Below, piece by piece: positions 9,491-16,271 of a DNA stretch of 49,261 bases. Below the pieces are notes generated by a model. It did not search any database, was not told where the DNA came from, and saw nothing but the letters and a program-made list of their open reading frames with translations. Position numbers and translations under genes: made by a program. This DNA is from Promethearchaeota archaeon (GTDB lineage: Archaea > Asgardarchaeota > Lokiarchaeia > Sigyniarchaeales > SOKP01): NCBI GenBank assembly GCA_011364925.1, contig RDOA01000025.1:1-49261 (forward strand), written 5' to 3'. Positions within the stretch are counted from its first letter, which is position 1. The number at the start of each line of letters is the position of its first letter.

Positions 9491-9967
9491 TCATCTCAAG
9501 GTAACGGGATATAGTTCATAACTATCCGTATACTCCATATGTTCGATTACCGGTCCTATGGAGAATATATTGGTTAAAGCATTAAATAAATCTATGGAGG
9601 GAGATTTTTCTAATGTGACACCAAAATAGAGTAAATACTCATCATCCCATTCTTCTATAAATTCATTCATGATATAGCCAATATAGGTCGTCTTCCGGTC
9701 ATCTTGTTTAAAAATGAATTTTATATCTTTTAAGGGTAAATAAAACGTACCATGCCTCATCGGAAAAAGTGTAATTAAATGTTCAAAGGGAACTATTTCA
9801 TCACTTAATAAGGATATATGCGTATTTTGAATCCATCTTAAGTTGGTTAGAATCCAAAACCCCCGCAACCTCTCTCTTTTCAGCTTGGTTGCGGTCCATA
9901 GTACATACTCATTCCTTTCCAAACAAACCTGCTCCTCAGCTTTCAAATACCGATTGATTTCTTCCAT
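9491..9967 (-). CDS. hypothetical protein (possible PH-like fold)
   Basis: 158-aa ORF filling the gap between co-oriented genes; GFWILTNLRW and YLPLKDI patterns. Confidence 0.55.
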   Translation of the reverse strand: MEEINRYLKAEEQVCLERNEYVLWTATKLKRERLRGFWILTNLRWIQNTHISLLSDEIVPFEHLITLFPMRHGTFYLPLKDIKFIFKQDDRKTTYIGYIMNEFIEEWDDEYLLYFGVTLEKSPSIDLFNALTNIFSIGPVIEHMEYTDSYELYPVTLR

Positions 9968-10542: not shown

Positions 10543-11370
10543 TTAATGAACCTCTAAAGCTGATTTTAAGATTTCTTCAGTTCTTTTCCATAGAGTTTCC
10601 TGAACTTCTTTATTATAGGTGATTTTTGTTGAAGAAGATATCCGGTTGTTTACGAAATACTTTCCGGTAACATCCTTTAATTCAGGAGACGTACCAACGT
10701 AAACTAGCTTTCTTGCTCCTTTAATTACTGGTTCTCCCCCCGCTTGAAAAGCTGCATGTAACAATTTAGTGTTAATTCTACCGGGATGAAGACAGTTTAC
10801 AGTGATACCTTTAGATTGTAATTTTTCTGCAAGTAGATAAGTAAACAAAATTAAAGCCGTTTTTGACTTTGCGTAAGCTTTTACGGCAGTATATCCTTTT
10901 TTCCATTGCAAATTATCGAAATCAAAATGATTAGAATGAACTCGTGACACTACGTTCACAACTCGACTCGGTCTGCCATTTTCTAACAAATCAAGTAATA
11001 AATTAGTGAGATAGAAAGGAGCTAAATAGTTTATAGCAAAAGTTTCTTCTAATCCATACTGGTTAACCGTTCGTTTTTGGCGAATAACTCCGGCATTATT
11101 AATCAACAGATCCAATCTATCGTAATGCTCGTAAAATTTATTGACCATTTCTCTTATTTGAGCAAGCGATCCCAGATCAGCGTACACAAAATTTAACTGG
11201 TTACTCTTTGTTGTTTCCTGAACTTTATTCATAGTTGATACGGCTTTTTCCCGATTTCTTCCGTGGATAATTACTTGATGCCCTAATTTAGCAAGTTCAA
11301 TCGCTGCTTGATATCCTATTCCGTCTGTGGACCCCGTTATCAAAATTAGTTTTTTTTCTGTAATAACCAA
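10543..11370 (-). CDS. short-chain dehydrogenase/reductase, retinol dehydrogenase/WWOX/POR-like subfamily
   Basis: TGSTDGIG, NNAG, FAINYLAPF, YAKSK, LHPG, TGKYF. Confidence 0.9.
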   Translation of the reverse strand: MVITEKKLILITGSTDGIGYQAAIELAKLGHQVIIHGRNREKAVSTMNKVQETTKSNQLNFVYADLGSLAQIREMVNKFYEHYDRLDLLINNAGVIRQKRTVNQYGLEETFAINYLAPFYLTNLLLDLLENGRPSRVVNVVSRVHSNHFDFDNLQWKKGYTAVKAYAKSKTALILFTYLLAEKLQSKGITVNCLHPGRINTKLLHAAFQAGGEPVIKGARKLVYVGTSPELKDVTGKYFVNNRISSSTKITYNKEVQETLWKRTEEILKSALEVH

Positions 11371-11382
11371 TCAACTCTCAAT

Positions 11383-11853
11383 TCAAGTGTTAAGAAATGG
11401 AATAAAATTGTCTAGTGTAACTTTCGCACCTATTTTTGAAGGAATATTAACCGCTTTTTTTACTTCATCATAAGAATATCCCTTATCGTAGAGGTTTTTA
11501 ATGGCAGGAGAAAATATTTTACGATAGAACTCATTTCCTATTTTTTTTATAATCTTATCAAATTCTTTACTCGTTATCCATTTTTCTTCTCCACGCTGTT
11601 TAACAGTTTTACCTTTTTCTCCATTATGTTCTTCTACCTCGTAAATTTGAGGAGAATGTCCAGTTCGTTTTTGATAACCTAAGATCGCAATAAGTGTCCC
11701 GTGAATTTTAGATTCTTCTTCGTCGTGCCCCTTTTCCTCCCAATCAATACGGTGGTATTCCGAAATTATATCCCATTTTCCAACCTTTACACGCTTAATT
11801 TTTTCGAGTTCTGCGTCAGAAAATTCATTTTCACTCATTCTATTTAAAAACAA
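11383..11853 (-). CDS. hypothetical protein
   Basis: 156-aa ORF whose stop lies 12 nt upstream of the SDR start on the same strand. Confidence 0.7.
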   Translation of the reverse strand: MFLNRMSENEFSDAELEKIKRVKVGKWDIISEYHRIDWEEKGHDEEESKIHGTLIAILGYQKRTGHSPQIYEVEEHNGEKGKTVKQRGEEKWITSKEFDKIIKKIGNEFYRKIFSPAIKNLYDKGYSYDEVKKAVNIPSKIGAKVTLDNFIPFLNT

Positions 11854-12075: not shown

Positions 12076-12723
12076 CTAATTGATAATTTTTAATTGGTTT
12101 ACCGTTTCAGATCCTTTTACATCGGGATTTTTTCCAAAAATCCAATATTGATATTCTCCTCCTCTTTCTAATATACCCTCGGATATGATGGAGAATCCTG
12201 ATTTTTTTATAAGATTAAGAGTGGTTTTTGGGTTAAAATTGCTCCAAAACATCGGGACTCCAAAAAAATTACTTGTGCCTTCTGATTCTGAAATTCCCGT
12301 ATTAATCATTAGGATGCCACCAGGCTTCAAAATTTTAATAAATTGTTTGAAGATGTCTAAATGTTTATTTTTAGGTACGTGAAAAAGCGCATATACGCTT
12401 ATAATTCCATCGAATGAGTTTTCACTGAATTGTAAATCATTCATATCCATTTTGATGAATTCAGCACTAGGAACATTATCTCGAGCTAAATTTAGCATTT
12501 TACCAGATAAATCGATGCCAGTTACTTTAATCCCTCGTTCTATAAGGAATTTTGCAGTAGGAATCCCAGCACCGCATCCTACATCTAAGATATGAGCGTT
12601 TTCTGGAAGATGAGAAGCAAATTCTTCTAATTCATTATTGAATTTACTTAGATTCCTGTGACTATAATAATCTTCAGCGATTCTATCGTATCCTTGTTCT
12701 ACTAGTCTACTTATAGCATTCAT
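12076..12723 (-). CDS. class I SAM-dependent methyltransferase
   Basis: GYDRIA, ILDVGCGAG, GIDLS, FDGIIS, LKPGG. Confidence 0.92.
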   Translation of the reverse strand: MNAISRLVEQGYDRIAEDYYSHRNLSKFNNELEEFASHLPENAHILDVGCGAGIPTAKFLIERGIKVTGIDLSGKMLNLARDNVPSAEFIKMDMNDLQFSENSFDGIISVYALFHVPKNKHLDIFKQFIKILKPGGILMINTGISESEGTSNFFGVPMFWSNFNPKTTLNLIKKSGFSIISEGILERGGEYQYWIFGKNPDVKGSETVNQLKIIN

Positions 12724-12834
12724 ATGATTAACTATACTAACTAAATCTTAAGAAGGCATGGGTAATTTTTTATTATTAGTCTCACTCTTATCGTTTATAA
12801 AATTAAATCCAATAGAAAGAAGAATTTATATTTT

Positions 12835-13299
12835 TTAACAATGAATATCTTTGATCTGTCCATGATTTTCGATTCTATTATATTTCTTGCTCTTGGATTG
12901 GAAATGTACTATAACCTGAGCGTTTTCAAGCTCTGGCATCGCTTTAATAAGATTCTTATCTCCACATTTAATTGTCTGGAGTACGAGTGGCAAATGATAA
13001 CAAAAGATTTTGTTTCGTAAACCGGTCCAACCAAAACAGAATCCTCCACTAACGTGCATATACAGATGTAGTTCGAATTCACCGTTTTTCTTTTGCCACT
13101 CAGCTAAAACTTCGTCTCTCATGAAACGGGTATATAGACCTGAGATTTGTTCGTAATCGTATTCTGAACCTATCGTAAGGAAAAGATCTCCAGTTGAATC
13201 AGAATGTGTTAATGTGTATTTTCGAGGTAAATCTAACGTGTTTTCAGCTACGGAATCTTTATAAACTACATGCAATTTTTCAGGATTTAGATCGGGCAT
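12835..13299 (-). CDS. STAY-GREEN (SGR) family protein, Mg-dechelatase homolog
   Basis: LNPEKLHV, LPRKYTLTHSDSTGDLFLTIG, MRDEVLAEW, HVSGG, LPLVL...GD, PEL..A.V.VHFQS...YN..E. Confidence 0.92.
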   Translation of the reverse strand: MPDLNPEKLHVVYKDSVAENTLDLPRKYTLTHSDSTGDLFLTIGSEYDYEQISGLYTRFMRDEVLAEWQKKNGEFELHLYMHVSGGFCFGWTGLRNKIFCYHLPLVLQTIKCGDKNLIKAMPELENAQVIVHFQSKSKKYNRIENHGQIKDIHC

Positions 13300-13364: not shown

Positions 13365-14699
13365 TTAAATTAAATCAATATATTGTTTTATGTTAAATTT
13401 TCGTTTCATTCCATCATAGCTCATATATCTTATTTTCCCAAAGACTTTTCTCTCGCCCCAAGCTCTATCATGAACACCTCCGATAGACCATGCTATTCCA
13501 GCATAGCCATTAGGGTCTCTTCCATCAAGTTCATATTTATCGTTGAGATAAATTGCGTATTCTACAGCCTTTTCAGGAGTCTCTGTCCATTCAAGAATTT
13601 TTTTTGCCCAATACATCCTAAGATAACCATGCATTTTCCCTCGTTTTATCATTTGACGTTGAGCAGTGTTCCATAGATCATCATGAGTTCTAGCTCTCTC
13701 TAATTCCTCCAAAGTATATTTATAGTCTCGTTTATCTTTTAAATGCTGATTCAAAGTCTCTATTGCCCAAGATTGAAAACTGGCAGTCGTATCATAATCA
13801 GGAGAATAAAAGCAGAAGTTATCTGATAATTCTTTACGTACAATTATTTCGTCATAAAACGAACCCTTGAGATTTATAATTCTTTTTGTCTTCGTCGCTT
13901 CTAGAACAACTCTTTGAGAAGAAATTTGTCCAAAATGTAAATATGGAGATAGATCGGAAACAGAATTTAAATTTGGATCGTTTCTTTCCCTAGTATAATT
14001 TCTAAGCTTTTTCTCAACGAATAATTTCAACACACCTCTTGCTTGATCCTCTCCTGGTCTTATCCAATCAAATGTGTATTTTGGATTATCTTCTGAAACG
14101 AAATTTCTTAGTTTTACCCAATTAACTTCGCTAAAGTTTTCTTTCCAAGAGTACGGGTGTTTCTTAATCTCTGGAAATTCAACTAAAAACTCCGCTAATA
14201 ACTTACTTATTTTTGAACGTATAGTATAGGCTGCATACTCTTTTTTATTAGATGCAATCCAACAAGGGACTATATTATGTGTATCTACTTCACTAAATGA
14301 TACGTTTAATTTACTTCTTAACGATTCAATCCAGTTCCTTTTTATTTTTAATGGAGAAAAGTCTGTTATTAACATACCTATTTTGTATTCCTCAATAAAA
14401 TTCGTTAAAACAGTTCTTGGATCTCCCTTTAGTGCCACAAATGTGATATTAAGTTCAATACAATCTTTTTCTATAATTTCTAATCCATCAAGCATAAAAT
14501 CAAAGATTCTTGGTTCCGCACCTAAAAATTCTTGCTGCAAACAAAAAACAACGATAATTGGTTGTTTATGATTTAATGCTAGTTCTTGAGCATAAATTAA
14601 AGCCCAATTATCTCTAATTCTTTGATCTCGACTCATCCAATATAAGATCGGACCACTGATCTTCTTCTCAAGTATTCTTTTGACTCTTCTATAGTCCAT
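13365..14699 (-). CDS. phrB: class II CPD DNA photolyase
   Basis: YWMSRDQRIRDNWAL, LSPYLHFGQIS, ELSDNFC, GKMHGYLRMYWAKKILEW, DGRDPNGYAG, HDRAW, GKIRYM; SD AGGGGA. Confidence 0.96.
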   Translation of the reverse strand: MDYRRVKRILEKKISGPILYWMSRDQRIRDNWALIYAQELALNHKQPIIVVFCLQQEFLGAEPRIFDFMLDGLEIIEKDCIELNITFVALKGDPRTVLTNFIEEYKIGMLITDFSPLKIKRNWIESLRSKLNVSFSEVDTHNIVPCWIASNKKEYAAYTIRSKISKLLAEFLVEFPEIKKHPYSWKENFSEVNWVKLRNFVSEDNPKYTFDWIRPGEDQARGVLKLFVEKKLRNYTRERNDPNLNSVSDLSPYLHFGQISSQRVVLEATKTKRIINLKGSFYDEIIVRKELSDNFCFYSPDYDTTASFQSWAIETLNQHLKDKRDYKYTLEELERARTHDDLWNTAQRQMIKRGKMHGYLRMYWAKKILEWTETPEKAVEYAIYLNDKYELDGRDPNGYAGIAWSIGGVHDRAWGERKVFGKIRYMSYDGMKRKFNIKQYIDLI

Positions 14700-14723: not shown

Positions 14724-15425
14724 TTATGCTAATGAAAAATCTACGGCTGCTTGTAAATGAATTTTTAAGGTATCGAAAAGAGGAACACTTAAATCTTCGG
14801 ATTTAATTAATATAGGAAGTTCCGTACATCCTAGAATTATCCCTTCTGCTCCATTCTGTTTTAAATTTTCAATTATTTTTAATATTTCTTTCTTAGTCGC
14901 TTCAATGAATTTCCCTTTTGCAAACTCATTGTAAATTGCGTTATTAATGTAGTCTCTTTCATTTTTAGCGGGAGTTAAAGCGTTAATGTCATAAGTCTTC
15001 ATAAGTTTCTCAATATAAAAACTTCCTTCCATCGTGAATTTTGTCCCTAATAAGCCGACATCTTTAATATTCATAGATTTTATAACCTTTGCAGTCTCAT
15101 CAACTACATTAATGAGTGGGATTGTAATCTCCACCTCAATTTTGGGTGCAATTTTGTGCATAGTGTTAGAGCAGATTACGATCGCTTTACTTCCAGCTAA
15201 TTCAAGTTTTTTACATATTATAATCATTGTTTTCAATAGATCATCCCATCTATTTTGTTCCTGCAAGAGCAGAACTTCCGCAAAATTTACAGAATACAAT
15301 AAGATCTCTGCTGAATACCACTCACCGAGCCTATCTTTAACCATTTCGTTAATAATTCTATAATAATCGATTGTATTCTCCCAGCTCATGCCCCCAATTA
15401 AGCCTAACAACTTCAAAGTCATCAA
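14724..15425 (-). CDS. aspartate/glutamate racemase family (RacX/YgeA-like)
   Basis: GLIGGMSWE, ICSNTMH, GLLGTKFTM, ILGCTEL. Confidence 0.93.
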   Translation of the reverse strand: MMTLKLLGLIGGMSWENTIDYYRIINEMVKDRLGEWYSAEILLYSVNFAEVLLLQEQNRWDDLLKTMIIICKKLELAGSKAIVICSNTMHKIAPKIEVEITIPLINVVDETAKVIKSMNIKDVGLLGTKFTMEGSFYIEKLMKTYDINALTPAKNERDYINNAIYNEFAKGKFIEATKKEILKIIENLKQNGAEGIILGCTELPILIKSEDLSVPLFDTLKIHLQAAVDFSLA

Positions 15426-15458: not shown

Positions 15459-16271
15459 TTACGCTGGTTGTAATACTCCAGCGAAGACTAACCATGCTAA
15501 AAGAGTTTTAGACCACAAACTAAGTAGAATGTATCCACGCTCTCCGTACAAGTAATCCTTCCACTTTCCTATTTTTTTATACTGTAAAATCATGTTAATA
15601 GGAAACGTATTGAAGAAAAATATATACGATCCAAAGATAGCCCAAACAAACCATGGAATTTCAGAAACATCTCCATTCCCAAAGAGATATAAAAGAATGA
15701 TTACCCAAGGAATAACTCCAGCAAACACTCCAATGTAAAACGCTGTCCACTTCGTTTTCTCAGTTGTTTGGTTGTGAATTTCCATCATCAAACCTAGAAG
15801 ATTCATTACCGTATTGATACAAAATATCAAAATCATACTTGAAAGGTCATAGACTCCAAAAAACCACGCAATCAAAACTATCATTAAGGATGAACTTAAA
15901 GCGTATTCAAACCACCGAAAGTAATTGATCCTTTCTCCCAGTTTTCTATTATAGAAATTGTTCACTTTAGGTAATACGATTAAAAAATGAGCAATAGCTG
16001 AGAGTAATAAGAACATCGCAACTAAAGGACCTATAGGGACTGTTGTTAATTGTTGGTAATCTGGCATGAGACTTGGAGGTATTACCGCATCATTGTAATA
16101 GAGATAAGATGTAGTGATCGGTAACTTAAAATCTCTTATTTCAGGAATTGTATAAGATAAAATCACCATTATGCTCGCTTGTATCAAGTGTAGAAATCCC
16201 ATAATCAGGTTAAAACGTCTTAAATACGAAAAACTGATTTTTGAATCAATTTTTTCATTCATATTTTTCAC
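15459..16271 (-). CDS. heR: heliorhodopsin
   Basis: LRRFNLIMGFLHLIQ, AHF, INYFRWFEYALSSSLM, FPINMILQY...GKW.DYLYGE..YILLSLWSKTLLAW (SxxxK retinal lysine). Start is GTG 16271 or ATG 16262. Confidence 0.96.
   Translation of the reverse strand: MKNMNEKIDSKISFSYLRRFNLIMGFLHLIQASIMVILSYTIPEIRDFKLPITTSYLYYNDAVIPPSLMPDYQQLTTVPIGPLVAMFLLLSAIAHFLIVLPKVNNFYNRKLGERINYFRWFEYALSSSLMIVLIAWFFGVYDLSSMILIFCINTVMNLLGLMMEIHNQTTEKTKWTAFYIGVFAGVIPWVIILLYLFGNGDVSEIPWFVWAIFGSYIFFFNTFPINMILQYKKIGKWKDYLYGERGYILLSLWSKTLLAWLVFAGVLQPA

Follow-up and report, generated by a model that had tools for sequence, protein, structure and literature searches.

A Staygreen family protein encoded beside heliorhodopsin and a class II photolyase in an Asgard archaeon

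The locus and its host genome

The window analyzed here, 49,261 nucleotides in length, is the whole of one contig (C33) of a 3.9 Mb genome assembled in 112 contigs. On its reverse strand, at positions 12835–13299, the ORF listing contains an intact frame that starts with ATG and encodes a protein of 154 amino acids (P0001), identified as Staygreen (SGR), a Mg-dechelatase homolog, by Pfam family PF12638, the crystal structure PDB 7Y5Y and an AlphaFold2 model. This gene is the fourth in a co-oriented run of heliorhodopsin, racemase, class II photolyase and SGR genes that are separated by gaps of 33, 24 and 65 nt, with a methyltransferase gene next. The heliorhodopsin gene (HeR; 15459–16271, reverse strand) lies 2.2 kb upstream of SGR and is supported by PF18761 (E = 1e-95) and the NCBIfam HeR equivalog model (307 bits). 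It is followed on the same strand by an Asp/Glu-type amino-acid racemase (14724–15425; PF01177, E = 7e-38; TIGR00035, 238 bits) and by a class II CPD photolyase (13365–14699) located 65 nt upstream of SGR, which matches PF00875 (E = 8e-32) and the NCBIfam model TIGR00591 phr2 (612 bits against a cut-off of 550). On the downstream side, and again on the reverse strand, a class I SAM-dependent methyltransferase (12076–12723; Methyltransf_25 and Methyltransf_11, E = 1e-22) lies 111 nt from SGR and a short-chain dehydrogenase/reductase (SDR; 10543–11370; PF00106, E = 5e-38) lies 1.5 kb from it. Two further reverse-strand frames downstream of the cluster, at 11383–11853 (156 amino acids) and 9491–9967 (158 amino acids), matched no Pfam or NCBIfam family.

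The methyltransferase is found ~111–119 nt directly downstream of SGR in most loci of the host's own GTDB family. An NCBIfam scan of this protein gave no model that reached its cut-off; the 50 bits obtained with BchM/ChlM fall short of its cut-off of 159 and lend no support to a link with tetrapyrrole methylation. When 16 such spacers from two genera are aligned, the intervening DNA (12724–12834, reverse strand) is seen to carry conserved AT-rich motifs, and both the spacer length (~111–119 nt) and the blocks TATAAA, ATTAAnTTnTATAA and TAATAAAnTATTA are kept across all 16 loci. These blocks probably serve the methyltransferase as an archaeal promoter or operator. When the longest block was sought elsewhere in the window as a shared operator, its own site was the only one found. 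A scan of the window for sigma-70 promoters and terminators, which is unsuited to an archaeon, gave chance-level matches only, and tRNA and Rfam scans of the window gave no matches.

Marker genes estimate the host genome to be 100% complete and 4.2% contaminated. The earlier note on this DNA had taken the host to be archaeal, and the genome bears this out: its partial SSU rRNA is matched best by the archaeal model (714 bits), and the nearest SGR homologs, which are 61–95% identical, come, where they are named, from Lokiarchaeota, Promethearchaeota, and Hermod-, Hod- or Odinarchaeota. Given the archaeal SSU rRNA and the Asgard names of these homologs, the host is an Asgard archaeon, and its class is most likely Lokiarchaeia, an assignment taken from homolog names only.

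Family membership, fold and catalytic residues

Recognition of P0001 as a STAY-GREEN homolog had been made by eye from short motifs, and the Staygreen profile agrees with it. PF12638 matches P0001 with E = 5.1e-49 and 166.3 bits against a cut-off of 27, over positions 2–146 of a 147-position profile, which is far beyond chance. A six-frame Staygreen search of the whole genome found a single copy, which is this SGR (165.7 bits). The motifs that had been quoted, THSD (31–34), RDEV (61–64), QISGLYTRFMRDEVLAEW and LHLYMHVSGG, are all present in P0001, and the plant motifs given as their counterparts have a real equivalent in Asparagus SGR (P0173), which carries QLQGWYNRLQRDEVVAEW and LHVHCHISGG in identical alignment columns. 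The Staygreen family is small, comprising 664 clusters at 50% identity among 1.8 billion representatives, and P0001 is a bare domain that has neither a transit peptide nor a C-terminal extension. A search for longer homologs of P0001 returned 6 matches only, so the fused form is not common in the Asgard-type clade.

Several unusual architectures and copies were observed among the homologs. Some Firmicute-type Staygreen proteins (P0125, P0126, P0148 and P0155) are fused to a C-terminal DUF3888 (three proteins, one of them from a named Clostridium) or to FG-GAP repeats, and none of these fusions were seen among the Asgard/Chloroflexota-type proteins. In a closed Thorarchaeia-like genome the SGR match (G368:C1:611491-611931, L083) lies within an open frame of ~305–318 amino acids, twice the usual length, possibly through extension at the N-terminus or through fusion. 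A genome of family f13 contains four SGR matches (G019:C19:16319-24115 and C2:169628-169780) that resolve into one intact gene, a second copy close by that is interrupted by two stops, and a pair of N-terminal fragments, which suggests local duplication followed by decay.

A phmmer search of P0001 against the PDB returned a sole match, 7Y5Y (E = 3.4e-46), the structure of AbSGR-h from Anaerolineae bacterium SM23_63, and the two proteins align gap-free over residues 2–152 with 74 identities in 151 positions (49%, counted by hand). An AlphaFold2 model of P0001 built from a 38-sequence alignment (mean pLDDT 86.6, pTM 0.82) was compared to the PDB with Foldseek and matched 7y5y_A with E = 4e-22, a TM-score of 0.94 and an rmsd of 1.4 Å over 151 columns. 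On the basis of this comparison P0001 has the SGR fold of the crystal structure. The runners-up were ADF-H/cofilin domains (TM 0.3–0.46; E from 2e-3 to 6e-2, with none below 2e-3), and their resemblance to the model is probably a mere generic likeness between alpha/beta sandwiches.

Mutagenesis of AbSGR-h revealed that the D34N and D62N variants are soluble and dead and that H32A is weakly active, that solubility needs R26, Y28, T29 and D114, and that the protein is a hexamer for which T31, R61, E63 and R95 are required (PMC8531759). Every one of these residues is present in P0001: the catalytic H32, D34 and D62 (AbSGR-h numbering) align gap-free with 7Y5Y, the segments T31-H32-S33-D34 and R61-D62-E63 are positionally identical, and the four structural residues and the four hexamer residues are all kept. 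P0001 is a full member of the Staygreen family that retains the residues found essential in AbSGR-h (PMC8531759). The 68 Asgard SGRs compared all retain H32, D34 and D62 together with R26 and Y28; T29 is retained in 66 of the 68 and D114 in 59. The invariance of the catalytic residues in these copies indicates strong purifying selection on the catalytic site, and P0001 itself is probably catalytically competent.

ALAD catalyzes a core step of tetrapyrrole synthesis. Searches of the host genome found no ALAD, no porphobilinogen deaminase and no CobN/BchH-type chelatase, and likewise no homolog of PaO or of chlorophyllase; there is no plant-like downstream catabolic pathway in the host. Across the phylum, 20 of 400 genomes have ALAD, and a comparison by hand shows that not one of them is among the 108 with SGR; a tetrapyrrole substrate, if any, would therefore have to come from outside. 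The sequences point to clear purifying selection on SGR in archaea whose lack of ALAD would keep them from making any tetrapyrrole.

Phylogeny and recurrent neighbors of SGR

SGR is patchily distributed, being present in 108 of the 400 species genomes of the host phylum, in 21 of 41 genomes of the host's own genus and in 38 of 54 genomes of the sister genus. An insert of five residues (YTRxM) before RDEV is found in P0001 and in all Asgard, Chloroflexota and eukaryote rows of the alignment, and is absent from 7 of 7 Firmicute-type rows. The insert-bearing type occurs in at least 578 prokaryote species genomes, and the best 80 of these are mostly Anaerolineales, with some Dehalococcoidia, Actinomycetes, Alicyclobacillus, Bathyarchaeia, Nitrososphaeria and Asgard lineages.

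A tree of 154 rows and 155 columns was computed with IQ-TREE under LG+C20 PMSF with a careful search. Firmicute-type Staygreen splits off as a separate clade (support 96/86), and the backbone of the insert-bearing clade is a Chloroflexota polytomy from which the eukaryotes emerge. Eukaryote SGRs form one clade (99/98) with P0001 outside it, and the Asgard SGRs fall into two clades, A with 36 rows including the window (100/100) and B with 32 rows (98/93). In agreement with the plant/Chloroflexota affinity proposed in the earlier note, P0001 groups with the Chloroflexota and plant SGRs and not with the Firmicute type; the outcome that would have spoken against the note, a position among remote homologs outside the plant/Chloroflexota clade, is not what the tree shows. 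An AU test does not reject a single Asgard clade (p = 0.52, the constrained tree being 2.3 lnL units better), nor does it reject a clade of Asgard and eukaryote SGRs (p = 0.38, 7.9 lnL units worse), so that a direct ancestor shared by plant SGR and the Asgard copies is not rejected. The claim that this protein is relevant to the origin of plant SGR is weaker than the earlier note implied: P0001 belongs to the same clade as the plant and Chloroflexota proteins, but a donor for plant SGR is not nameable from 155 columns given the polytomy and the AU values of 0.52 and 0.38. The enzyme that begins chlorophyll breakdown in plants could now as plausibly have come from Asgard archaea as from Chloroflexota. 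A separate observation concerns a Chloroflexota-like SGR within the Chloroflexota polytomy that was recovered on a 2.6-kb contig binned as an alphaproteobacterium (L116, a Pseudolabrys sp. MAG); the contig was probably misbinned, and the SGR is then not a proteobacterial one.

The sister group of Asgard clade A consists of 8 Chloroflexota rows (97/89), and SGR was clearly exchanged between Chloroflexota and Asgard archaea. The same placement lends some weight to the hypothesis that the SGR of the window is a Chloroflexota contaminant in an archaeal bin, or else a decaying relic of a recent transfer. That hypothesis is largely refuted, and we consider it highly improbable: the closest SGRs (75–79% identity) are in congeneric genomes that show the same methyltransferase synteny, SGR is carried by 21 of the 41 genomes of the genus, the reading frame is intact with all key residues kept, and the flanking heliorhodopsin is 84–90% identical to the copies of congeners. 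We rejected contamination on the strength of the synteny and of the placement in the tree with congeners.

The surroundings of SGR were compared in a sample of 61 Asgard loci, consisting of the window and SGR ± 9.5 kb from 60 other Asgard genomes; these loci were searched with the window proteins, and neighbors at up to 6 kb were clustered without prior choice and the largest clusters annotated. The most frequent neighbors within 6 kb were SDR (24 of 61 loci), SAM methyltransferase (23), heliorhodopsin (18), an ABC exporter (16) and an MFS transporter (11). The SDR neighbor is weak evidence because SDR is a large generic family. Class II photolyase lies within 6 kb of SGR at 5 of the 61 loci, a racemase is near it at 6, a class I type photolyase/cryptochrome at 10 (families f16 and f19), and an AhpC/TSA peroxiredoxin within 6 kb at 11, all in families f19 and f31. 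It was also observed that the peroxiredoxin adjoins SGR in f19 (L078-L082, L094) and f31 (L084-L091), and that f19, together with f16, additionally has the class I type photolyase/cryptochrome, in place of heliorhodopsin.

Counted by hand across the 400 genomes of the phylum, SGR and HeR are both present in 81, SGR alone in 27, HeR alone in 51 and neither in 241; the corresponding counts are 19, 3, 4 and 16 in the host's own genus and 35, 3, 4 and 12 in the sister genus, with the qualification for all of them that related genomes are non-independent samples and that truncated contigs hide some linkage. In 30 genomes SGR and HeR share a contig and are no more than 10 kb apart (14 of the own genus, 8 of the sister genus, 7 of f16 and 1 of f18), as compared to ~0.4 expected if there is one HeR gene per ~3.7 Mb genome. 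By locus, HeR is within 10 kb of SGR at 21 of 68 in Asgard archaea, 6 of 58 in Chloroflexota and 2 of 3 in Actinomycetota. A photolyase of either class is near SGR at 16 of 68 Asgard and 10 of 58 Chloroflexota loci, and HeR or photolyase at 28 of 68 and 15 of 58, respectively; when the Asgard loci are limited to those flanked by 5 kb or more on each side, the latter figure is 23 of 50. Among the best 80 of at least 578 loci, which are mostly bacterial, HeR is within 10 kb of SGR in 13. Several Anaerolineales loci have HeR immediately adjacent to SGR on the same strand, ~10 have a photolyase 1–3 kb upstream of SGR, and one Dehalococcoidia locus has SGR with both HeR and a class II photolyase. 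On the SGR tree the HeR-linked state changes at least 18 times, and the arrangements vary in order, strand and distance. Linkage to HeR, as would be expected of a heliorhodopsin–partner pair, recurs in Asgard archaea, Chloroflexota and Actinomycetota.

Exceptions to this pattern are family f19, where SGR is present in 10 of 19 genomes and HeR in none, and families f13 and f31, where the two genes co-occur without linkage. Three of the genomes counted as having SGR alone contain only a broken SGR, with fragments or in-frame stops (G059:C1:90359-90781, L075; G188:C1:1569031-1569264; and G031:C43:7021-7176), which is consistent with decay of SGR after loss of its partner. Co-occurrence of SGR and HeR could also arise from a shared sunlit habitat and not from a shared pathway. 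One hypothesis of this kind is that SGR processes scavenged pigment for nutrition or salvage of Mg, phytol or the macrocycle, unrelated to light, and that light genes are nearby only because all of these genes sit on accessory DNA whose gain and loss go hand in hand in sunlit habitats. A salvage function would suit the patchiness of SGR within genera (21 of 41 in its own), the transporters common near it (ABC at 16 and MFS at 11 of 61 loci) and the unlinked co-occurrence in f13 and f31. However, tight same-strand adjacency recurs in several arrangements and in two domains of life, other light or ROS genes (class I type photolyase, peroxiredoxin) substitute for HeR beside SGR in f19 and f31, and searches of the host genome for the downstream catabolic genes PaO and chlorophyllase found neither. 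For these reasons, we regard salvage unrelated to light as decidedly unlikely.

A proposed role and its relation to known systems

P0001 is shown to belong to the family, to have its fold and its conserved residues and to be linked to heliorhodopsin and photolyase, in a genome where the core tetrapyrrole genes searched for are absent; from this we infer, as the reading that we favor with a modest degree of confidence, that P0001 is an active dechelatase like AbSGR-h that would act on exogenous Mg-tetrapyrroles within an accessory light-stress module. AbSGR-h is highly active and has broad substrates (Chl a, b and c, chlorophyllide and protochlorophyllide), and its proposed mechanism has Mg coordinated by D34 with deprotonation via H32 and D62 (PMC11006732). 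By homology with AbSGR-h, D34 of P0001 would be the ligand for the Mg at the center of a chlorin or porphyrin, proton handling would fall to the H32–D62 pair, and release of the metal would leave a free-base pigment of the pheophytin/pheophorbide type. The substrate would most likely be a Mg-tetrapyrrole of outside origin, for example derivatives of chlorophyll or bacteriochlorophyll supplied by neighboring phototrophs or detritus. SGR would belong to the module alongside heliorhodopsin and photolyase, where it may process photosensitizing pigment when the cell is illuminated, possibly with heliorhodopsin in control. Pheophytin and pheophorbide, the expected free-base products, also act as photosensitizers, and dechelation alone would be no detoxification; this is the weak point of the light-stress reading. 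That reading does fit the published view of heliorhodopsins as sensory switches for photo-oxidative stress defense, in which porphyrins are the photosensitizers involved (PMC8612252), and the regulation of photolyase by heliorhodopsin (PMC9769723).

An alternative hypothesis is that SGR serves heliorhodopsin chiefly as a binding partner or effector, or has a non-tetrapyrrole or non-Mg substrate, with chlorophyll dechelation being a promiscuous side activity in vitro. Heliorhodopsins do bind and regulate soluble enzymes, as described for a photolyase (PMC9769723) and an ABC transporter (PMC11109279), and Obata 2019, in the accounts given of it in PMC9306834 and a bioRxiv preprint, found activity to be very variable among homologs, the chlorophyll activity of bacterial SGR being called promiscuous in those accounts. 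The host, moreover, has no tetrapyrrole synthesis (no ALAD and no porphobilinogen deaminase), and HeR and SGR are spaced by 28–300 nt on the same strand in Asgard and Chloroflexota loci. Set against this hypothesis is the fact that all 68 Asgard copies strictly conserve both the catalytic triad and the residues that line the proposed chlorophyll pocket, which argues for catalysis of the AbSGR-h type, and an alternative substrate is suggested by no domain and no neighbor. We consider a primarily non-dechelating SGR unlikely. The favored interpretation of P0001 as a dechelatase may also be carried a step further, in that heliorhodopsin would be the light switch for SGR, through binding or co-expression, in a conserved system of Asgard archaea, Chloroflexota and Actinomycetota that demetallates environmental chlorophyll-type photosensitizers under light. 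We put this forward tentatively, as a possibility that we would not presently expect to hold.

Archaeal SGR itself is not new. The alignment of Dey et al. 2021 already has archaeal SGRs, two from MCG/Bathyarchaeota and one from Thorarchaeota SMTZ-45 (PMC8531759 supplement), a 2026 bioRxiv preprint reports SGR homologs in Archaea and names a Sigynarchaeales genome, and many Asgard copies are already named 'staygreen family protein' by NCBI. The SGR gene is an ordinary family member, and its value is in the conserved context and in a host that has no tetrapyrrole synthesis. Among the papers searched, none links heliorhodopsin to Staygreen or names Staygreen as a heliorhodopsin neighbor. Two questions are tied together at this locus: what is the role of SGR homologs in chlorophyll-free organisms, and what are the regulatory targets of heliorhodopsins? 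SGR shares its gains, losses and genomic placement with a light sensor, photolyases and a peroxiredoxin, and its position beside a light sensor and light-repair genes suggests a natural role that can be tested. If heliorhodopsin were indeed a switch for SGR, a natural function would be provided for both of these orphan proteins.

Of the systems already described, Firmicute-type Staygreen (Clostridium, Tepidibacter, Lachnospiraceae) shares with P0001 the Pfam family and the conserved R26, Y28, T29 and H32, but it differs in having no five-residue insert, in sometimes having N at position 34 or E at 62, in being fused in some cases to DUF3888 or FG-GAP, and in forming a separate clade (96/86). 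The STAY-GREEN proteins of plants and green algae (SGR1/NYE1, SGR2, SGRL) have the same Pfam family, catalytic residues and insert (GWYxRLxRDEV) as P0001, with 40–47% identity across the domain. Unlike P0001, they have a transit peptide and a C-terminal extension, are ~250–500 amino acids long as compared to 154, and form their own eukaryote clade (99/98); plant STAY-GREEN acts on the cell's own chlorophyll in chloroplasts, whereas the host of P0001 has none.

AbSGR-h (PDB 7Y5Y; PMC8531759 and PMC11006732; Obata 2019 and Dey 2022 as cited there) is another close counterpart. Both it and P0001 are single domains of ~155 amino acids with 49% identity and the same fold, both have the THSDST motif, H32/D34/D62, the structural residues and the five-residue insert before RDEV, and both come from non-photosynthetic hosts. 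They differ in that the host of P0001 is an Asgard archaeon without core tetrapyrrole synthesis genes and in that dechelatase activity is a prediction for P0001. The papers on AbSGR-h are without gene context, whereas the gene for P0001 sits with heliorhodopsin and a class II photolyase. In this respect the locus is comparable to the heliorhodopsin–partner pairs TfHeR–photolyase (PMC9769723) and OcHeR–OmrDE ABC transporter (PMC11109279). HeR and SGR are a candidate partnership indicated by gene linkage; as in those pairs, the window has heliorhodopsin beside a soluble enzyme and a photolyase, and its neighborhood is rich in light-damage and redox genes, as at the HeR loci of monoderm bacteria (PMC8612252).
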